DNA of 15,774 bases from Acidobacteriota bacterium (lineage in GTDB: Bacteria > Acidobacteriota > UBA6911 > JACQSX01): NCBI GenBank assembly GCA_036507075.1, contig DASXQR010000094.1, forward strand, positions 1 to 15,774, given 5' to 3'. How positions within the stretch are numbered: the first letter of the stretch is position 1; the number at the start of each line of letters is the position of its first letter. The position numbers were made by a program, and so were the translations under genes. Under the pieces are notes generated by a model, which worked only from the letters and a program-made list of their open reading frames with translations, was not told the origin of the DNA and searched no databases. Positions 1,308 through 13,909 of the stretch are shown piece after piece.

Positions 1308-1584
1308 ACATTGCTCCCAGACAGCTATTGTAGCTGATGCGACTGCCAAGTCGACCACGGACGGGAACGTTGTGAAAACCTACGCCGACGGGTTTGGAAG
1401 CAGCGAAAAGATCAAAAAGCCGGAACCGCGAAGGCGCGAATCGATGACTGGCAAAAAAAAATGCATAGGCAGGCTGTGGATTTTTTTGTGGAAATTTTTC
1501 TGATGAGCCCGCCCGCGCTGAACAAGAGAGCCGATCGTGTTGTGCTGCGATCGAGTGCATCGCAAAAAATCTTGATTTTCGATG

Positions 1585-1612
1585 TTGACTGCTTTGCGCA
1601 ATCAAGTAGAAT
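1585..1612 (+). promoter_or_regulatory. Sigma70-type promoter for the structured ncRNA candidate
   Basis: TTGACT (1585-1590), 16 bp, TAGAAT (1607-1612). The predicted TSS at ~1619-1620 coincides with the first base of the RNA closing stem. A/T-rich tracts lie upstream. Confidence 0.75.
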
Positions 1613-1618
1613 CCCCCT

Positions 1619-1872
1619 TGTCCCAAGAGGTAGATGCGATTCGCGGCAACGGTTGTCCTGAATGGGATCCGCACATGGTCGGTCTGGAAACGGATTGATT
1701 AAATGTGTGGATAAGCCGTTCAGGGCACATAAGGTGACGCGAGCCTGAGCGACGGTTGTCCCGGGCTAAACCTGCTTCGGTGTCCGGACCCGAAAGGGTT
1801 CGGTTGCCAAGAAGGAGGCGGTAGTTCGGGGCACGTAAGTCGCAATGGATCGAGTGTCGATCACTTGGGACA
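1619..1872 (+). ncRNA. Highly structured ~254-nt non-coding RNA of unrecognised family with internal two-fold pseudo-symmetry
   Basis: Closing stem TGTCCCAAG/CTTGGGACA. Stem 1635-1641/1838-1844. Arm 1 has three stacked helices (1655-1665/1716-1726, 1667-1676/1703-1712, 1677-1686/1691-1700) capped by GAAA. Arm 2 has helices 1758-1768/1822-1832 and 1784-1791/1796-1803, also capped by GAAA. Hairpin 1848-1862. Many G-U pairs work only on the + strand. Promoter upstream, T-rich tail downstream, no credible ORF. Confidence 0.8.
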
Positions 1873-1940
1873 TTTTCGTTTCCGGGATCACTTTTCTAAC
1901 CAACGGCACGATGTGCCTGCCTGCGGCAATTTCCAAAAAT

Positions 1941-2174
1941 TCGGATTCGGAATGCTTTCAAATGCGAATTATCGGAATACGGAATACTTTCCAATGCGGA
2001 TTTCGGCATGCGGAATGCGGAATAATTGTTCGTGGTCAGTAGTCCGTAGTCAGTTGTGTGCATGGCCACGTGATTACCTAACGAATAATGGACCACGAAC
2101 AACGGACTACCGACTACGGACGACAGGCAGCTCTTTTATTCCGCATTCCGCATTCCGAAATCCGCATTTGAAAG
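1941..2174. repeat. Nested inverted heptamer-microsatellite element: (ATGCGGA)n...(TCCGCAT)n enclosing (GTAGTCM)n...(GGACTAC)n
   Basis: 1993-2025 is the reverse complement of 2136-2168 at 32/33 nt. Perfect inverted matches occur at 2026-2037/2091-2102, 2042-2051/2112-2121 and 1955-1966/2163-2174. Confidence 0.9.
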
Positions 2175-2176
2175 TA

Positions 2177-3805
2177 TCAGTTACCGCCATTCCCGCCGGC
2201 CATGGCGGCGGGGCCAGGAATCAGCAACTGAAAGAAGTTGGAGTTTTCAAATTCGTAGGACGCCTGAAGGCATTCTTCGAAGAGATGCACCCTGTCACGC
2301 TGGAAAAGTTGGACCAGGTAGTCGGTGATGCGCAACTCAGCCGGCGTGAGACGGCGGCGCAGCGTGGATCGCAGGGCGATGATTCGATCCGTGCATGTGT
2401 CCAAATCGTGGATCTTCCCCATCAATTTCTGAAAATCCTGGAGCTTTTCTAATTCCGTTTCGAAATTACGACTGCCGACCGACTCAAAAATCTCAAGTGT
2501 GTAACGAAGTTTCTTGCAACTGACGCGCAGGCGATGAAACTCTTCACGATCCAGCGGATTGCGCGCTGATTCAAGCCGGCTTCGCGCTTTGGTGGCCATT
2601 TGCTTCAATAGCCGGCGGGTGTTGGCGTAAGTCCCTTCCGAGGGGTCGACGCCGGCCTGCTTCACCGGCCGCTTGCGAATATGATAGTCCAGCGTGTCCT
2701 GAAGCTCGTCGAACAACCGATTCTGACGCGACTGATGCAGCGCGCGCGCCAGCCTGCTTTGCGCCGATTCACGCTCGTTCGCAATCTCATCCATCAAAAC
2801 CGGAAAGCCGGCGGACTCGGTTTGCTGCAATTTACGGTACGCAGAGAGCTGGTCAAGAAGCACGTCCAACTCGCGCAATTCACCGGCATGCATGCGAATC
2901 TTTCTGATTTCCTGCAGGTGAAGACGTCCGGTCGGGTAATAAGCCGAAAACGTGAGCAGCGCGTGCAGCAGCTTCATGGCGGAAATCCGAAGGAGCCTGA
3001 CATTGCTTGATTTCAAGTCATTCTCCGCTTCCTCGAACGCCTTCATGAACGTCCGCAGCAGCGATCGCTGCGCTGAAATTACCTGGCGCCGGAACATCTG
3101 CGGCGAATCCCGCAGTGCCGAGAAAGAGGTGATCACGCTTTCTTCATCCATCGGAAAGTTCCGATCCACCGCGGCGCGAAACAGCCGCTCGCGGGGGTAA
3201 GGCACGTCTTCGATACTGGCCTGGACCTTTCCGTTGCTGATCGACAGGACGGCGTACTGAGCGTGGCCGGTTCCGTTGAGGTGCTTGCCCACAGCGCCGC
3301 AGTTGATAACCCAGCCGTTCTTGAGCCGTCGCACAAAAGACTCGTGGCTGTGCCCGCAAATCAGAATCTGGCAATCGGTCTCCGAGAGCATTTCCTCCAA
3401 TTCCTTTGGCTTTCTCTGCGGCGTGATGTATTCCATTTCACTGAAGGGGCTTCCGTGCACAATCAGAATTTTTTTCCCTCCGATTTGGACTTGGCGGCGA
3501 GCGGGAAGCTTCTCGAGCTGGCTGAGATCGGAAAGGGTGAGACGTTTCAGGGTCCACCTGGCGAGCGGTTCACGTTCTTTTTTTCGCTCTCCGCGGGCTC
3601 TCAAGACCTTGAGATCGGAATTTCCACGGATGGATGTGACTCTGTGCTTTCTCAGCAATCGAAGAACTTCGCCCGGAAAAGGGCCGTCACCCACCAGATC
3701 TCCCGCGCAGTAGATCCGCCGGATCTTCCGTTTTCGGATGTCTTCCAGGACGCACTGCAACGCGGGCAGGTTGGCGTGGACATCGGAAATCAGCGCTATT
3801 CGCAT
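2177..3805 (-). CDS. Metallophosphoesterase (YfcE/MJ0936-like, calcineurin-like fold) fused to a C-terminal CHAD (polyphosphate-binding) domain
   Basis: N-terminal motifs SDVHAN, GDLVG, GNSD, VHGSP, GHSH, NCGAVG. C-terminal CHAD motifs GELRELDV, FHRLRVSCKKLRYTLE, LMGKIHDLD. Start taken at MRIALISD (3805), the typical family N-terminus. Confidence 0.88.
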   Translation of the reverse strand: MRIALISDVHANLPALQCVLEDIRKRKIRRIYCAGDLVGDGPFPGEVLRLLRKHRVTSIRGNSDLKVLRARGERKKEREPLARWTLKRLTLSDLSQLEKLPARRQVQIGGKKILIVHGSPFSEMEYITPQRKPKELEEMLSETDCQILICGHSHESFVRRLKNGWVINCGAVGKHLNGTGHAQYAVLSISNGKVQASIEDVPYPRERLFRAAVDRNFPMDEESVITSFSALRDSPQMFRRQVISAQRSLLRTFMKAFEEAENDLKSSNVRLLRISAMKLLHALLTFSAYYPTGRLHLQEIRKIRMHAGELRELDVLLDQLSAYRKLQQTESAGFPVLMDEIANERESAQSRLARALHQSRQNRLFDELQDTLDYHIRKRPVKQAGVDPSEGTYANTRRLLKQMATKARSRLESARNPLDREEFHRLRVSCKKLRYTLEIFESVGSRNFETELEKLQDFQKLMGKIHDLDTCTDRIIALRSTLRRRLTPAELRITDYLVQLFQRDRVHLFEECLQASYEFENSNFFQLLIPGPAAMAGGNGGN

Positions 3806-3860
3806 TAACTTAATATAGCGCAGTTTCGGCGCTCGGGGGCAGGGGCGCCGAGTCAACAAA

Positions 3861-4171
3861 CGGTTACGGGCTGACGAGTTGTGAGTTACGGGTTGGCGAG
3901 TTGGCGGGTTGGCGGGTTACGAGTTGACGGGTTACGAGTTGACGAGTTACGGGTTGACGAGTTGACGATACGGGTTGGCGAGTTGACGAGTCGGCGAAAT
4001 TCAAGACTCCAAACTGGAGAATGTTACATTTTCAATCCTTTTGCCGGCCGAACTCTGCATTTTCAGTTGGGATTTTCACTTCTTTAGTTCGGCGTACGCT
4101 TATTTTCACGACAGCAAAAACCTGTAACCCGTAACCCGCAAACCTGTAACCCGTAATCCGAAAACCCGTAA
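3861..4171. repeat. Inverted microsatellite arms: mixed 7/8-mers GRGTTAC/GRGTTGRC (3861-3996) and (GTAACCC/GAAAACCC)n (4119-4171) around an AT-rich core
   Basis: Read directly. Same family as 11941-12287. Confidence 0.88.
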
Positions 4172-7550: not shown

Positions 7551-9113
7551 ATGCCGGATTCTGACAACAACACTAACTCGGTTATCGCGGCGATCGACGT
7601 AGGCTCGAGCGCCATCCGCATGGCCATCGCCCAGTGGGATGCCTCCGGTCGATTTGAGGAACTGGAGAACCTGTCTCGCGGCGTTGCTCTCGGGAAAGAT
7701 GTGTTCACGGACGGACACATCAGCGAACAGTGCATCCAGGCTGCCTGTGAAACACTGCGCGGCTTCCGAAAAACGATGGACACGTACGGCGTGCAGAAGT
7801 ACCGGGCGGTGGCCACCAGCGCCGCCCGGGAAGCAGTCAACACGGATACGTTTGTGGACCGGGTTTTCATGCGCACCGGCATTGAAGTTGAGGTGATCGA
7901 CGGGCCCGAAGAAAACCGGCTCACCTATTTGGCCGTGGCCGACATTCTCAAGGACGAAATGCGGAAGGGAAACAAGGAGACGCTGCTGGTGGAAGTGGGC
8001 GGAGGGAGCGCCGATATTTCCTTTATCCGAAACGGAGGGCCGGTGCATGCGGGAACTTACCCGCTGGGTGCCCTGCGACTGCGCCAGTCACTGGCCGGAG
8101 TTGACCGTGGTCCGGGCCATCGGGTGGCGGCACTGGATCGATACATCCACACCACACTGGAGACGATGAAGCGGTCCATTCCATTCGAAAAAGTCTCGGA
8201 AGTGATCGCCGTAGGGGGCGACGTTCGCTTCACCGCCCGGCAGCTTGAGGGCGCAGCCAAGCATCTGTATTCAATCCCGCGGTCGGACTTCCTGCAGTTT
8301 TGCGATCAGATTTCCCGGTACGACGAGGATCAGTTGGTCAAGCAGTATCACATTTCATATGTAGAGGCGGAAACACTGGTTCCCGCGTTGCGCGTATACA
8401 AGCAGTTGCTGGAAAAGACGGCGGCCGAAACGGTGATGATTCCCACTGCCAATATCCGCAGAGGCATGCTGCTGGACTTGATCTGCAGTTCAGGACAGGG
8501 GAACATCGAAGAGCTTTCCAGGGAAATCCTCAGCTCGGCGCGCGAAGTGGCGCGCAAGTACCAGACCGATCTGAATCATGTCGACAATGTTGCTTCCCTT
8601 TCGGCGCAGATGTTCGACCAGTTGCGACAGGATCACGGTCTGGACGGGCATGCCCGCATGCTGCTGCAGGCTGCGGCACTGCTGCACGACATCGGGCTGT
8701 TCGTGAATTCCCGTGAACACCATAAGCATTCACAATATTTGATCGGCTCTTCCGAGATTTTCGGCCTGAGCGCACGCGACGCTGAGATTGTCGGCAACAT
8801 TGCCCGTTATCATCGACGCGCCATGCCTCAGCGAAGCCATCCCAGCTACCAAAATCTGGAAGCGGCTGAAAGGATGGAGGTATGCAAGCTGGCTGCTATT
8901 CTCAAAATCGCCAATGCGCTGGATAAGGACCACACTCAGAAGGTTCAGCGGCTGGAATTGGAGCATCAGGATTCCGAAATCGTGCTCAAAGCGCATACCC
9001 GCTCCGACACCGACCTGGCGCTGGAGCAGGTGACGCTGCAGAAGAAGGCCGATCTGTTCGAAGAAATCTATGGCAAACGAGTCACTTTACAGCAGATTCC
9101 CGGCGCCGATTGA
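7551..9113 (+). CDS. ppx: Ppx/GppA family exopolyphosphatase with C-terminal HD-like domain
   Basis: AAIDVGSSAIRM, AVATSAAREAVN, IDGPEENRLTY, VEVGGGSAD, LGALRL, ALLHDIG, HHKHSQYLI, IARYHRR. Directly upstream of ppk1. Confidence 0.93.
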   Translation: MPDSDNNTNSVIAAIDVGSSAIRMAIAQWDASGRFEELENLSRGVALGKDVFTDGHISEQCIQAACETLRGFRKTMDTYGVQKYRAVATSAAREAVNTDTFVDRVFMRTGIEVEVIDGPEENRLTYLAVADILKDEMRKGNKETLLVEVGGGSADISFIRNGGPVHAGTYPLGALRLRQSLAGVDRGPGHRVAALDRYIHTTLETMKRSIPFEKVSEVIAVGGDVRFTARQLEGAAKHLYSIPRSDFLQFCDQISRYDEDQLVKQYHISYVEAETLVPALRVYKQLLEKTAAETVMIPTANIRRGMLLDLICSSGQGNIEELSREILSSAREVARKYQTDLNHVDNVASLSAQMFDQLRQDHGLDGHARMLLQAAALLHDIGLFVNSREHHKHSQYLIGSSEIFGLSARDAEIVGNIARYHRRAMPQRSHPSYQNLEAAERMEVCKLAAILKIANALDKDHTQKVQRLELEHQDSEIVLKAHTRSDTDLALEQVTLQKKADLFEEIYGKRVTLQQIPGAD

Positions 9114-11211
9114 AACTCCTCCCCCGGAATTGCTGATCAACCGCGAGTTGAGTCTTCTGGAATTCAACCGCCGCGTCTGGCGGGAAGGCATGGATCCGGA
9201 AACGCCGCTGCTGGAGCGCCTGCGATTTCTTTCCATCGTGCTTTCAAATCTGGACCAGTTTTTTTTGGTGCGCGTGGCCCGGCTCAAAACCCAGAGCCTG
9301 GCCAACGAGTCAAGCCATTGTCCGACCGGGATCTCGAATGCAGATTTGTTGGACGCCATATCGGGCAAGGCGCACGACCTGGTTAATGACGTGTACGAAA
9401 GTTTTGCCGGGCTGGTTTCCGATCTGCGACAGGCCGGTATTGCCCTGGTTTCATTGGATGAGTTGGATGAAGAAGCCCACGCAGTGCTGGACGAAAAATT
9501 TGAGTCGGAGATTTTTCCCGCGCTCACGCCGCTGGCGGTAAAGCAGAAACGGCCCTTTCCGCTGTTGTTCAACCTTTCGTTGAATCTGGCAGTCCGCCTG
9601 CAGCTGCGGGACGGCGGAAGGCGCCTGGCGGTGGTTCAGGTTCCGGCCACCCTGCCGAGGCTGATCGAGATTCACGCCGGCAAAGGATCGCAAAAGACAT
9701 TCGTGCTGCTCGAAGAAGTCGTTGCGCGCAATGTGAGCCGGCTGTTTCTTGGATATAAGGTCCTGGAAACAAGGATGTTTCGCATTACGCGCGACGCCGA
9801 CTATGAGCTTGATGACGAGGGCGCGGAAAATTTTATCCACGCCGTGGAAGAACAACTCAGGAGACGGAGAATCAACGAGCCGGTCAGGCTGGAATTGCAG
9901 TCTCCGGCGAGCCCCTCGCTGACGCGGCTGCTTCAGAAGTCGCTGCGTCTCACGGACGCCGATATTTATCCTGTTCGGTGCCCGCTCGATTTGCGAGGTT
10001 TGTTGACGCTGTGCGATCTGCCCGGGTTTGACACCCTGAGATATCCGCTCATGCCGCCGGTGGGAATGATCGCCCCCATTGACAGGCAGGATTTGTTTGC
10101 CCTGGCAGCACGAGAGGACCTGTTATTCCATCATCCGTACGAGTCCTTTGAACCGGTGGTGGAATTGGTTCGCCAGGCCAGCGTCGATTCCAAAGTGCTG
10201 GCAATCAAGCAGACGCTCTACCGCACAAGCGGCGACTCTCCCATCGTGCGGGCTCTGGAAGCCGCCGCTCTCAATGGAAAGCAAGTCACGGTGCTGGTGG
10301 AATTGACCGCCCGCTTTGACGAAGAAAGAAACATAAGCTGGGCTCGCAAGCTGGAAACCGCCGGAGCTCACGTTATCTATGGCCTGGAGGGATTTAAGAC
10401 TCACGCCAAGATTCTGCTGATCGTACGTCGAGAACCACAGGGGATTCGCCGCTACGTGCATCTGAGCACCGGCAACTATAATGACCGGACTGCCCGGCTT
10501 TATACCGACATGGGCCTGCTCACGTCGCGCGAGGACATTGGTTCGGATGCTTCGGGTTTTTTTAACGCGATCACCGGTTTCAGCGATCCTCCCAGTTACC
10601 AGAAACTCGCCATGGCTCCCCTGGGACTGCGCGAAAGGATTATCTCCCTGATCGAGCGTGAATCCGTGCGGGCGCGCGAAGGTCAGCAAAGCCTGATTCG
10701 CGCCAAAATGAATTCTCTGATCGACCTTCCTCTTGTGATGGCGTTGTGTGAGGCGGCGCGCGCGGGCGTGAACATACAATTGTGCGTGCGCGGGGTTTGC
10801 ATGCTCCGGCCGGGACTGCCGGACTTCTCCGGAAACCTGAAGATCTTCAGCATTATTGATCGTTTTCTGGAGCATAGCCGTGTTTTCCACTTTTACAATG
10901 GCGGCAGCGATGAGGTGTACCTCAGCAGCGCAGATTGGATGCCGCGCAATCTGGATCGGCGAATCGAGCTGATGTTCCCGGTTGACTGTCGCGCGGCGCG
11001 CCGTAAGGTGCTGCAGGCCCTCGACATCATATTCAGTGACAATACAAAAGCCTGGGATTTGCAGACTGACGGCAGTTACGCGAAGCGCAGTCCCGCGACC
11101 GATGAACCACCGATTCGCTCTCAATATAAGCTTTATGAAGCGGCGCTGCGCCAGTTAGAGCAGCAGCTTCAGGAGGCGCATTTCCAATTAAGGCCGATCG
11201 AGGCTCGGTAG
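9070..11211 (+). CDS. ppk1: Polyphosphate kinase 1
   Basis: INRELSLLEFNRRV, LLERLRFLSI, DLLFHHPYESF, IKQTLYRTS, ELTARFDEERNI, KTHAKILL (phospho-His region), HLSTGNYN, RFLEHSR, SSADWMPRNLDRRIE. Overlaps the ppx 3' end by 44 bp. Confidence 0.97.
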   Translation: MANESLYSRFPAPIETPPPELLINRELSLLEFNRRVWREGMDPETPLLERLRFLSIVLSNLDQFFLVRVARLKTQSLANESSHCPTGISNADLLDAISGKAHDLVNDVYESFAGLVSDLRQAGIALVSLDELDEEAHAVLDEKFESEIFPALTPLAVKQKRPFPLLFNLSLNLAVRLQLRDGGRRLAVVQVPATLPRLIEIHAGKGSQKTFVLLEEVVARNVSRLFLGYKVLETRMFRITRDADYELDDEGAENFIHAVEEQLRRRRINEPVRLELQSPASPSLTRLLQKSLRLTDADIYPVRCPLDLRGLLTLCDLPGFDTLRYPLMPPVGMIAPIDRQDLFALAAREDLLFHHPYESFEPVVELVRQASVDSKVLAIKQTLYRTSGDSPIVRALEAAALNGKQVTVLVELTARFDEERNISWARKLETAGAHVIYGLEGFKTHAKILLIVRREPQGIRRYVHLSTGNYNDRTARLYTDMGLLTSREDIGSDASGFFNAITGFSDPPSYQKLAMAPLGLRERIISLIERESVRAREGQQSLIRAKMNSLIDLPLVMALCEAARAGVNIQLCVRGVCMLRPGLPDFSGNLKIFSIIDRFLEHSRVFHFYNGGSDEVYLSSADWMPRNLDRRIELMFPVDCRAARRKVLQALDIIFSDNTKAWDLQTDGSYAKRSPATDEPPIRSQYKLYEAALRQLEQQLQEAHFQLRPIEAR

Positions 11212-11332
11212 GCGGATTATTTTTGATTTCGCGCTTTCGCGTCTTCGCGGTGAATTTGTTCACTCCTCTGAGGTGCGGGAACACCAACGGGGCTTGCCGC
11301 GGCCTAAAACGCCCGTACTTAAGGGGGACCCC

Positions 11333-11938
11333 ATGATTCTTTGTTTTGTACGTCACGCCATTGCTGCTGATCGGCAATCGTGGAAGGAAGACGACGAAAA
11401 GCGACCTCTGACCGCCGAAGGGGTTAAGAAAATGAAAAGGGTTGCAGATGCGCTTTCTCTGATGGGCGGGGATTTTACCTATATCTGCACCAGTCCGCTG
11501 AGGCGCGCCAGGCAAACCGCAAAAATCCTGTCGCGAAAATCGGAGCATTCCGCCGAGACGCTGATATGGAGTGAACTCGTGCCGGGAAGTCCGCCCCAGG
11601 ACCTGCTAAACAAGCTTCAGGTGCTCTCCCGGAAACGCCAAGCCAAACCGGCTAAATCCGGGTCCGCATCCAGACGTGTTGCGCCCGGCAAATCTCAGAA
11701 GGCTTCCAATGACCGCCGGCCGGCCGTTTCCGGCAACTCGGCCCAAATCGCACTGGTGGGCCACGAACCGCACCTCAGTCAGACGGTTTCTTACCTCCTG
11801 TGCGGAGATGCTCATAAAATGTCAATTGCATTCAAGAAGTCAGGGGTCTGTTGTCTGGAATACAACGGAAAGATTCCAGCCACGCTTCGCTGGTTTCTGC
11901 CTCCCCGAATGGCAGCAAGCATAGCGAAACGCAGTTGA
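11333..11938 (+). CDS. sixA: SixA-type phosphohistidine phosphatase (histidine phosphatase superfamily)
   Basis: FVRHA, DEKRPLTAEG, TSPLRRARQTA, LVGHEPHLS. ATG at 11333 follows an AAGGGGGA SD. Contains a basic low-complexity insertion. Confidence 0.85.
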   Translation: MILCFVRHAIAADRQSWKEDDEKRPLTAEGVKKMKRVADALSLMGGDFTYICTSPLRRARQTAKILSRKSEHSAETLIWSELVPGSPPQDLLNKLQVLSRKRQAKPAKSGSASRRVAPGKSQKASNDRRPAVSGNSAQIALVGHEPHLSQTVSYLLCGDAHKMSIAFKKSGVCCLEYNGKIPATLRWFLPPRMAASIAKRS

Positions 11939-11940
11939 GA

Positions 11941-12287
11941 TCCGGGTTCCGGGTTTTCGAGTTGCGGGTTGCGAACTGTGCTGTTGAGAAGATGGTCTAT
12001 TCCAAAGTAAACCTGAAAATCCCAAATTGAAAATTCCCGCCGACGACAGGGATGTTGGATAATGTCTTTTCCAATAGAGATATCTGATAATACGCTTTCC
12101 AGCTTTGAATTTTGAATTCGCCCGGATTATTGATAAAGCTTCACCGCGAAGACCGTCCTTGCCGCTCTCTTGGCGTTCTTGGCGGTCTTCGCGGTTAGGT
12201 TTTTTGTGAATAATCCGGGCTAGTAACTCGTAACCTGTATCCCGAAAACCCGTAACCCGAAAACCCGAAAACCCGAAAACCGGTAAC
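11941..12287. repeat. Multiply nested inverted-repeat element
   Basis: Outer arms (CGGGTT..)n 11941-11973 and (..AACCCG)n 12223-12287. Perfect 12-bp IR at 12120-12131/12209-12220 and perfect 13-bp IR at 12143-12155/12183-12195. Confidence 0.85.
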
Positions 12288-12292
12288 TTCTT

Positions 12293-12910
12293 ATGGCTCT
12301 AATCAAAATGTTCCAACGCGATGAAAAATTCACGGAAGTCTTTCGCTCCATGACTTCCAATCTCACCAGCGCCAGCGAATTGCTGGAAAAATTTCTGGCG
12401 GAGCCGACAAACATCCAGCTTAGAGACCAGATCAAAGATCACGAGCATCGGGGAGATCTGCTGGTCAAAGAAGTAATTCTAAAACTGGATGTCACCTTCA
12501 TTACGCCGTTTGATCGGGAAGATATCCACGAACTGGCGGGAATCATTGACGACGTTCTCGATCTGGTGCATCGCGCGACGGCCAAGATCACGATGTATGG
12601 CATCCGCAGCGTGGTCCCGGGTACCAGGGAGCTGGCGCACATTCTGACCGAGCAGACCAGAGACCTGGAATCCGCGGTAGTAAACCTGAAAAATTACAGC
12701 GAAGTGCTGCGGCTTTGCGAGCATGTCAGTGAACTTGAGAAACAGGGTGATGCCCTTTATTCCCGCAGCATCTGCTCGATATTCGAAAATGTCAAAGATC
12801 CAATTGAACTGATCAAGCTGAAGGAAGTCATCGAGACGGTCGAATCGGCTCTCAACCGCAGTCAGGACGTGGGGGACGTGCTCGAATCTATCGTCATCAA
12901 GAACACCTAG
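12293..12910 (+). CDS. DUF47 / PhoU-like phosphate transport regulator (Pit accessory protein)
   Basis: IKDHEHRGD, TFITPFDREDIHELA, LEKQGD, IELIKLKEVIETVE. Immediately upstream of pit. Confidence 0.92.
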   Translation: MALIKMFQRDEKFTEVFRSMTSNLTSASELLEKFLAEPTNIQLRDQIKDHEHRGDLLVKEVILKLDVTFITPFDREDIHELAGIIDDVLDLVHRATAKITMYGIRSVVPGTRELAHILTEQTRDLESAVVNLKNYSEVLRLCEHVSELEKQGDALYSRSICSIFENVKDPIELIKLKEVIETVESALNRSQDVGDVLESIVIKNT

Positions 12911-12916
12911 ACGCCG

Positions 12917-13909
12917 ATGCTGCTCTACTACGTGATCTTCATCGTCATAGTGGCGCTGGTGTTTGATTTTCTCAACGGCTTCCATGACGCGGCCAATTCG
13001 ATCGCTACCATCGTTTCCACGCGCGTGCTCACTCCGCTGCAGGCGGTGATTTGGGCTGCTTTCTTCAACTTTGTGGCGGCGTTTGTCTTTGGCACCGCCG
13101 TAGCCAAGACTCTCTACAAGGGTCTTATCGATATCCGCCAGGTGAATGAAACGGTGATCTTATGCGGCCTGATCGGGGCCATCCTGTGGAACATCATTAC
13201 CTGGTATTTCGGACTTCCGACCAGCAGCTCCCACGCGCTGATTGGGGGGTACGCCGGAGCGGCGGTCGTGCGTGCCGGCTGGTCTGTGCTCATATTGAAG
13301 GGCTGGTATCCCACGCTGGAGGGCATCGTGCTGGCGCCGCTCATCGGACTGGCGCTCGGCTTCCTTTTCATATTTATCACCTACGGCGTGGTGAAGAGAT
13401 CGCGCCCTCGCAGAATAGATCAGATCTTCAGAAAGCTTCAGTTGATTTCGGCCGCTCTGTACAGCCTGGGACACGGCACAAACGACGCTCAAAAAACCAT
13501 GGGAATCATTGCAGGCGTTCTGTTTTCGGCCGGCTATTTGACGCGAAGCGAAATTCCGTTTTGGGTGATTCTGATTTGTCATGCCGCGATGGGACTGGGA
13601 ACATTCTTCGGAGGTTGGCGCATCGTAAAAACCATGGGCCAGAAGATCGTCAAGCTGCGTCCTATCGGTGGTTTTTGCGCTGAGGCGGCCGGCGCCATAA
13701 CCATAATGAATGCCGCTCATATCGGAGTTCCCGTCAGCACCACCCATGTCATTACCGGATCAATCGTGGGCGTGGGGTCCATTCATGGACTGTCTGCTGT
13801 GAAATGGGGAGTAGCCGGAAGAATTGTCTGGGCCTGGATCATCACCATCCCTGCTTCCGCGTCCGTGGCTGCAATTTCTTATCTTGTGATCAGTTTATTC
13901 ATTCAATAG
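12917..13909 (+). CDS. pit: Inorganic phosphate transporter, PiT family
   Basis: FDFLNGFHDAANSIAT, GLPTSSSHALIGG, HGTNDAQKTMG, GGWRIVKTMG, GVPVSTTH, WIITIP. Multiple hydrophobic segments. Confidence 0.96.
   Translation: MLLYYVIFIVIVALVFDFLNGFHDAANSIATIVSTRVLTPLQAVIWAAFFNFVAAFVFGTAVAKTLYKGLIDIRQVNETVILCGLIGAILWNIITWYFGLPTSSSHALIGGYAGAAVVRAGWSVLILKGWYPTLEGIVLAPLIGLALGFLFIFITYGVVKRSRPRRIDQIFRKLQLISAALYSLGHGTNDAQKTMGIIAGVLFSAGYLTRSEIPFWVILICHAAMGLGTFFGGWRIVKTMGQKIVKLRPIGGFCAEAAGAITIMNAAHIGVPVSTTHVITGSIVGVGSIHGLSAVKWGVAGRIVWAWIITIPASASVAAISYLVISLFIQ

Follow-up and report, generated by a model that had tools for sequence, protein, structure and literature searches.

A Predicted Two-Arm RNA with a Duplicated Internal-Loop Module in Acidobacteriota

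Introduction

Large structured RNAs whose function is unknown are seldom found in bacteria, and with every new class ideas of what RNA can do have shifted. The c-di-AMP (ydaO) riboswitch has an internal pseudo-two-fold design that provides two like sites. Another noncoding RNA, CcnA of Caulobacter, is reportedly linked to the replication cycle. Three further kinds have been described. In raiA RNA, which is bound by the KH protein pair KhpA-KhpB, the closing helix (P1) is conserved and the periphery varies (PMC12968392); Y RNAs serve as tethers between Ro60 and an effector (PMC4201824); and the natural RNA multimers OLE, ROOL, and GOLLD use RNA bridges (PMC12286853).

Herein, we describe a 252-nt RNA predicted at positions 1620-1871 (+) of a 15,774-nt stretch of Acidobacteriota DNA (the window), which is part of a 6.1-Mb genome designated G000; window coordinates are used for this RNA throughout. 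Like the raiA motif RNA, the two-arm RNA is an orphan structured RNA of ~250 nt whose P1 is conserved in both length and sequence, with variation in the peripheral stems. It differs from raiA in having another P1, two-fold internal loops, a DnaA-box-like promoter, and no predicted pseudoknotted core, and it resides in another phylum. A raiA identity was rejected, given that no Rfam match points to the P3-P4-PK1-PK2 core and that the UUAGA(C/A)GUAA linker is absent. The bacterial Y RNAs YrlA and Yrn1 likewise join a conserved terminal handle to a variable body in a tether design. A Y RNA identity was also rejected, as the 5′ end of our RNA is GUCCCAAG, it has no GNCGAAN(0-1)G motif, and no tRNA-like gene was called in the window. 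The gene for Ro60/Rsr (TROVE, PF05731), which usually neighbours that of a Y RNA, was found in 0/5 and 0/5 carrier-family genomes, with positive controls.

Larger relatives of the RNA (377-695 nt), described below, resemble OLE, ROOL, and GOLLD in their size range, multibranched form, and unknown function, but these large forms have no Rfam match and no conserved kissing loops were found in them. As with 6S and other decoy RNAs, the family RNA would be produced from a standalone gene with paired ends and a strong sigma70-like promoter, but unlike 6S RNA it is branched and has no central bubble. The 6S, SRP, RNase P, and tmRNA candidates were rejected, each being found at other places in G000. 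Unlike CcnA, the family RNA has a locus that is not at the origin. An earlier note on this DNA had drawn an analogy with the c-di-AMP riboswitch. In our RNA, however, the sites are internal loops on separate arms, the riboswitch consensus and model have no match, and the RNA is not the 5′ leader of a regulated gene. A cis-acting sensor of that type is unlikely because the RNA has its own promoter and U-run and no fixed downstream gene.

At the gathering score, Rfam 15 has no match for the window RNA, its G002 copy, its paralogue, or 19 other family loci. A description of the family was not found in the literature covered, whose scope excluded most subscription papers and the supplement of PMC11109978, which could hold a related motif. 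The main texts of PMC11109978 and PMC8632094 do not mention Acidobacteria. As far as these searches reach, the family is uncatalogued and is new within Rfam 15 and the literature searched.

Results

A Duplicated Motif within a Predicted Standalone RNA

The RNA locus is intergenic, with a divergent peptidase S58 gene on one side, a convergent metallophosphatase-CHAD gene on the other, and a ppx-ppk-sixA-DUF47-pit cluster nearby. Fold z scores for the region 1600-1900 are −7.9 on the + strand and −2.1 on the − strand. Based on this score, on full-length homologues, and on changes in base pairs, we predict a standalone structured RNA of the two-arm subtype at 1620..1871 (+). The ends of this 252-nt RNA are presumed ones, placed by a promoter and by a U-rich run at 1872..1881 (+) whose sequence makes it a likely terminator tail. 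We are nearly certain that the RNA gene at 1620-1871 is genuine. A small protein-coding gene was rejected as the explanation, since an open frame of 35-41 codons is kept in only 4 of 7 two-arm copies and is absent or different in the other three, including the window copy.

Both repeats described in the earlier note are present as claimed upon checking the sequence. The 5′ repeats, GCAACGGTTGTCC at 1646-1658 and GCGACGGTTGTCC at 1749-1761, are identical at 12 of 13 positions, and the 3′ repeats, GGGCACATAAG at 1723-1733 and GGGCACGTAAG at 1829-1839, at 10 of 11. Neither is rare alone, with a 12/13 repeat arising in 51 and a 10/11 repeat in 547 of 3000 dinucleotide shuffles of 1620-1871, but the two occur colinearly in 0/3000, so the pair is beyond chance. 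Within the 6.1-Mb genome, GGGCACRTAAG is found only as these two copies, at 1723-1733 and 1829-1839. At the level of sequence, the duplicated motif is real and conserved.

Predicted Fold of the Two-Arm RNA

The interpretation placed on these repeats in the earlier note is supported only in part, just as the observation itself is partly confirmed. The note proposed a four-way junction at which GCRACGGUU is single-stranded, but forcing that junction costs 10.5-15.9 kcal/mol relative to the best fold in all six homologues. Their consensus fold is instead predicted to be a three-way junction at which P1, the closing helix, meets two long arms, each of which carries the motif as an internal loop. 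This form is the best fold for five of the six homologues and lies 0.8 kcal/mol above the best for the window copy, in which alone a small hairpin at 1848-1862 is possible; the other five homologues lack it. Folding of the linker as its own hairpin, as in the earlier topology, was rejected, since the linker pairs within the arm-base helices P2 and P3.

The 5′ strand of P1 (1620..1632, +; GUCCCAAG-A-GGUA here) is the handle seen throughout the family and pairs with the 3′ strand at 1859..1871 (+), where the consensus fold and family alignment place a conserved A opposite position 9. Nucleotides 1620-1627 pair with 1864-1871, after which the U-run begins. The base of arm 1 is the P2 core (1641..1645, +), pairing with 1738-1742 and showing a compensatory change in a G001 copy. 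Arm 1 itself is 84 nt (1650..1733, +), with a GAAA tip loop at 1687-1690, an AA bulge, and a second purine-rich loop. It is joined to arm 2 by a 19-nt linker strand (1734..1752, +; 19-20 nt in 7/7 two-arm RNAs) that provides the 3′ side of P2 and the 5′ side of P3. The P3 core, GCGAC (1749..1753, +), pairs with 1839-1843 at the base of arm 2, an 87-nt arm in the predicted fold (1753..1839, +) with a GAAA tip loop at 1792-1795.

Each repeat pair is predicted to form a 3x5 internal loop with a C-G closing pair, beyond which comes UGUCC/GGGCA. The two arms are equal in length, and each carries the loop core, Y-RGN-UG / CAC-N-UAA-G, at a distance of one helical turn. In the six homologues, the 5′ strand of module 1 (C-GGU-UGUCC; 1650..1658, +) is invariant at 8/9 positions and its 3′ strand (GGGCA-CAUAA-G; 1723..1733, +) at 11/11, with corresponding values of 8/9 (1753..1761, +) and 10/11 (1829..1839, +) for module 2. 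The GCRA extension of the repeat is conserved on arm 2 (4/4 columns) but not on arm 1 (0/4). The distal arm sequences, previously called unrelated, are alike in length (79-86 and 86-91 nt), have helices in register in 10-12 of 12 arms, and share an invariant AA and mostly GNRA tip loops.

Conservation of the Two-Arm Subtype

Full-length two-arm copies were found in G001 (two copies), G002, and G004, which all belong to one family, and on one metagenome contig. The six two-arm homologues are 69-86% identical. Their consensus structure has 93.7% of cells able to pair, against 31-40% in slid controls, and both sides have changed in 21/92 pairs, against 10.8 ± 2.3 in shuffles. Relatedness is either disregarded or only partially accounted for in these controls, and the same six sequences were the source of the structure. 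A diverged, 247-nt second two-arm cassette at C77:421-667 (+) of G000 was recovered with a weight matrix of the upstream DNA, having been missed by BLAST and by both RNA models. Both loops are retained in this paralogue, and the helix flanking them shows compensatory changes.

Conservation is concentrated in the module, where 37/40 columns are invariant in the six homologues, including 14/16 unpaired positions, compared to 55/137 other paired and 20/59 other unpaired columns. The junction nucleotides are thus more conserved than the stems, and both copies are retained in 7/7 two-arm RNAs with a linker of 19-20 nt. Because of this invariance and joint retention, which are the opposite of what the earlier note named as refuting its reading, the proposal of two equivalent sites is well supported. 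The seven sequences are not independent, however, since all come from one family and six of them are 69-86% identical. Among the 14 arms (79-91 nt), a G and UG on one strand and GCAC and UAAG on the other are invariant, whereas the 5′ strand varies at position 4 and the 3′ strand at position 7. The loop-flanking U-A and G-C pairs are present in 14/14 arms, while the flanking helix has changed from C-G to G-C in two arms and from U-G to C-G in one, with one U-U break. Spacing is also regular in 7/7 two-arm RNAs, with 29-31 nt preceding module 1, a 19-20-nt linker, and a tail of 32-34 nt.

Five of the seven two-arm loci adjoin DUF47-pit, CHAD, or S58 genes of the phosphate cluster, a synteny that extends within one family. 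The cassette is inverted or relocated relative to neighbouring genes among homologues, and the downstream gene, which is convergent in the window, is replaced by other genes or orientations in the homologues. Syntenic loci in G003 and G005-G008 yielded nothing, G003 being 63% complete and also without the S58 neighbour.

Homology searches place the two-arm form within narrow limits. Whole-RNA BLAST gave matches in 4/101 genomes, all of one family. A sequence model matched 7/137 genomes, with three weak hits outside the family that lack the module, and an arm model matched 5/137, with its outside hit inside a 608-aa ORF, and 1/151 across the phylum. A genome pattern search of the sort suggested in the earlier note recovered eight loci with the collection pattern, four of them true, but its single-arm version (13/401) did not rise above the control level. 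Of 71 metagenome pattern matches, one was true. Module patterns found 1, 17, and 0 loci on viral contigs, none homologous, and the 3′ handle pattern found 48 there, none with the 5′ strand; plasmids gave one 16% match and phages none. The narrow range is a lower bound, as the models also missed the paralogue in G000.

The Handle Family

The family is marked by its closing helix, GUCCCAAG-R-GGU / AUC-A-CUUGGGAC, and its members span 118-695 nt. The P1 strand pattern GTCCCRAGRGGT ... TCDCTTGGGRC matches 60/137 genomes of this Acidobacteriota class, a count that includes the window’s genome and G015, while the reversed pattern gave one match. Handle RNAs occur in most genomes of many families (f11 14/15, f12 14/15, f10 8/10, f13 3/3, f21 3/3; f6 0/51), near single copy and up to three per genome. 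Outside the class, the pattern matched 4/363 sampled genomes, with one mismatch each and no U-run or promoter in any.

The 55 distinct RNAs retrieved comprise forms of 118-121 nt (3), 247-261 nt (7), 278 nt (1), and 377-490 nt (44), all predicted to be densely paired. The U-run is found in 55/55, which is partly a result of selection. The handle is near-invariant and the interiors share little, although use of the handle as the search pattern makes it look more constant than it is. Within P1, pair 13 covaries between A-U (31) and G-C (18), and pair 2 is U-G in 7/55. Interiors of the large forms show poor conservation in the class. The genes beside the RNA vary from family to family, and those of the large forms are unrelated. 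The family escapes whole-RNA homology searches because only the 24-nt handle and the promoter are kept.

The CAC-N-UAAG sequence occurs in 7/7 two-arm RNAs, 2/44 large forms, and 0/5 newly found members, and on this comparison the duplicated module is a feature of the ~250-nt subtype only. Two-fold binding would not be the common function of the family, as the module is absent from nearly all large forms. The motif highlighted in the earlier note is conserved, but it is the closing helix and promoter that define the family, a point which that note had missed. In G000, the handle cassette is present three times, in the window, at C77:421-667 (+), and at C167:75117-75235 (−).

Promoter and Upstream DNA

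A sigma70-like promoter (TTGACT-16-TAGAAT; 1585..1612, +), conserved in six homologues, lies 7 nt before the RNA, which begins at G1620. The −35 and −10 elements are in place in 44/55 family members, compared to 0.5% for the control. Upstream comparison also identified an A-tract/T-tract (1564..1579, +) before the −35 element, which we take to be UP-element-like. An imperfect palindrome, TGCTG-N7-GTGCA (1543..1559), has the family consensus TGCAC-N7-GTGCA; it is located at −77 here and at −76/−77 in 7/7 two-arm loci. The consensus, allowing ≤2 mismatches, occurs between −82 and −47 in 45/54 family members (vs. 0.6%).

Farther upstream, at −145 and −133 (1475..1495), is a tandem pair, TGTGGATTT / TGTGGAAAT, that is present in 7/7 two-arm loci and that we presume to be DnaA-box-like, assuming the DnaA box consensus and DnaA regulon as generally understood. 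A similar site on the same strand falls within −160..−123 in 48/54 family members (vs. 1.0%). The AT-rich AAAATGCATAG block preceding the boxes (1458..1468) is conserved in two-arm loci but not in large forms.

These promoter features, which were not used in the handle search, are enriched 50-100-fold. A search by box and palindrome alone matched 42/100 genomes. Among 30 loci from the promoter-only search, 20 carry a handle 58-61 nt downstream, of which 15 were known and five are new (481, 643, 643, 643, and 695 nt). The remaining 10 have no handle, a point against the reading proposed below, and such box/palindrome loci may belong to other genes under the same regulator.

G000 has few tandem TGTGGA pairs, with five having a 5-nt spacer and three a 6-nt spacer, and they include sites between dnaA and the gene that follows it, ahead of dnaB, and ahead of the gene for a B12-dependent ribonucleotide reductase. 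From these box pairs, we infer that the RNA promoter may be controlled by DnaA. The RNA locus itself was rejected as the chromosomal origin (oriC) because it is not next to dnaA and exhibits no GC-skew reversal. In G000, dnaA and the RNA locus are on different contigs, and in G002 the GC skew flattens ~14 kb before the locus with no reversal. Among ten closed genomes, six that belong to one genus have the RNA ~120-160 kb from dnaA, and the distances in the other four are 64 kb, 350 kb, 1.2 Mb, and 1.4 Mb.

Discussion

We tentatively propose, with somewhat less than even confidence, that the two-arm RNA serves as a trans-acting RNP scaffold or decoy. The RNA would be transcribed from its own promoter-like signals, perhaps under the control of DnaA, its family-wide handle would be bound by one conserved protein, and its twin internal loops would each take one half of a dimeric protein. 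Y RNAs and raiA RNA offer precedents for this kind of design. With either no or three unpaired nucleotides between P2 and P3, the arms could stack coaxially, which would separate the loops by ~20 bp (two turns) and relate them by a two-fold axis in a manner resembling a palindromic operator. What sequence comparison provides is the cassette of boxes, palindrome, −35/−10 elements, RNA, and U-run, together with the three-way fold, the joint conservation of the loops, and a family in which handle and promoter persist across interiors of 118 to 695 nt. A trans-acting RNP fits the invariant handle with its replaced body, the dedicated promoter, the paralogues, and the free orientation; inversion and relocation of the cassette and its three copies in G000 are what would be expected of a trans-acting gene. 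A dimeric protein fits the loops, which are identical and evenly spaced and whose flanking pairs do not vary in sequence. The U-A and G-C flanking pairs in 14/14 arms, along with the invariant G and C..UAAG, point to sequence-specific recognition, but invariant bases are just as compatible with RNA-RNA tertiary contacts or with a ligand pocket. No partner protein that travels with the RNA was found.

Among the other readings, assembly by RNA alone is fairly improbable. The twin loops would be docking receptors for the GNRA tips or AA bulges of other copies, yielding dimers or cages as with OLE, ROOL, and GOLLD, for which bridges of this sort are described (PMC12286853). Arms of equal length with GNRA tips and AA bulges, as well as an A-rich UAA strand suited to A-minor contacts, are consistent with this. 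However, no conserved complementary or palindromic tip loops are present, the tips would face away from the loops on a coaxial rod, and the C77 paralogue has other tip loops in its predicted fold. We give a lower probability to a DNA mimic, similar in effect to 6S or Ms1, that binds polymerase or a replication protein, with the DnaA-box array linking it to the cell cycle. It would account for the box array at a fixed distance in 48/54 members, for like box pairs before dnaB, before the reductase gene, and at dnaA-dnaN, and for near-single-copy presence in many families. Yet the genome has a normal 6S gene elsewhere, the RNA has no central bubble, the boxes indicate at most regulation of the gene rather than its target, and the locus is not the origin, lying between 64 kb and 1.4 Mb from dnaA in the ten closed genomes. 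A mimic of rRNA or tRNA that titrates a translation factor is quite unlikely. The loop does resemble the top of what we take to be 23S helix 96 (CGGUUGUCC..GGGCAC in G047 and CAGUUGUC..GGCAU in G000, with a 2-nt bulge in the same register), and P1a matches 6/7 pairs of the acceptor stem of G000 tRNA-Glu(UUC). The 5′ handle strand also resembles the helix 91 strand GUCCCAAGGGU (PMC3695512). These matches were noticed post hoc and are short, helix 96 contains nothing equivalent to the conserved UAAG strand, helix 91 of G000 differs, neither CCA nor a fixed discriminator follows the handle, pair 2 is U-G in 7/55, and the arm model has no hit to helix 96 in 23S loci.

Two identical conserved loops, and the location of 5/7 two-arm loci beside DUF47-pit, CHAD, or S58 genes, would suit a two-site sensor of a metabolite or ion analogous to the c-di-AMP riboswitch, perhaps for phosphate or polyphosphate as the neighbours suggest. 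We regard this as very doubtful, given the lack of an expression platform, of a fixed downstream gene, and of any Rfam riboswitch match, the flips in orientation, the confinement of the synteny to one family, and the unrelated neighbours of the large forms. It is more doubtful still that the DNA itself matters, as a DnaA titration site or mobile cassette, with an incidental RNA fold. Although box arrays are present and the cassette moves and duplicates, the fold is strand-asymmetric with G-U pairs and tetraloops, compensatory changes are seen, the promoter and U-run bracket the handle exactly, no transposase is nearby, and the GC skew does not reverse at the G002 locus. Least credible is a self-cleaving or otherwise catalytic RNA, such as one resembling the hairpin ribozyme. 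The G002 copy is a weak hit to Hairpin-meta1 (17.2 bits against a gathering score of 40, E 1.6), and a loop A can be sketched in arm 1 from UGUC and AGAA. However, the loop A fold is 10.9-24.7 kcal/mol worse in 6/6 homologues, the G8 position is U in the window copy, and arm 2 has no loop A. The loop B partner is also absent, the one shared AAAC being a tip tetraloop, which is missing in one copy, and no family hit falls at the locus in four genomes. Among 941 hairpin ribozymes, G8, A22-A24, C25, and A38 are invariant (PMC8216279). The candidate was rejected because neither loop A (G+1, G8) nor loop B (A22-A23-A24-C25 facing A38) could be recognized.

The trans-acting scaffold or decoy that we favour could be part of a broader arrangement, which we consider unlikely but worth stating: a class-wide, DnaA-controlled modular platform in which the fixed handle docks members on one conserved cellular machine and the bodies (118-695 nt) are swapped between lineages, with the two-arm body capturing a dimeric protein in the manner of a palindromic operator made of RNA. 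If this were true, availability of the dimeric protein would be coupled to the replication cycle. Although the family is new within the searches made, its mechanism may be of a known kind, namely that of a protein decoy or scaffold. The family offers three precise, testable leads: the handle and its exchangeable bodies, the DnaA-box-like promoter, and the two-fold site in the RNA. Its forms of 118 nt and 252 nt are of a size that suits probing, pull-down, and cryo-EM.

Additional Observations

The RNA at G000:C167:75117-75235 (−) is a 119-nt rod with the same handle. Short forms are also found in G001:C288 and G004:C118, beside a common convergent gene. At the other extreme, L328, L329, L334, and L335 of family f8 are handle members of 643-695 nt, which is the size range of OLE and ROOL, and have no Rfam match. 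The 278-nt member L188 (G099:C301) lies just upstream of a gene that, from its sequence, we presume to be CarD-like.

Loci L306, L319, L320, and L330-L333 carry the box array and a TGCAC-N7-GTGC palindrome with no handle downstream. The tandem pairs of G000 are located at C59:92791, C73:70082, C83:158623-160340, and C116:12210-12285; these four sites lie before dnaB, before the B12-dependent ribonucleotide reductase gene, and around dnaA (the likely origin), with one unexplained. One closed genome has two full-length dnaA matches (G023:C1:39127 and C1:3512952).

Just downstream of the RNA, window positions 1984-2177 form a long hairpin with tandem 7-mer arms, which are 42 nt and 95% complementary; others are at 1-154 and ~3860-4000. 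The polyphosphate/phosphate cluster (window 7551-13909 and 2177-3859) includes ppx, ppk1, a SixA-like gene, DUF47, and pit, and the same region also encodes the metallophosphatase-CHAD fusion and carries PLD-like and tyrosine-phosphatase-like genes.
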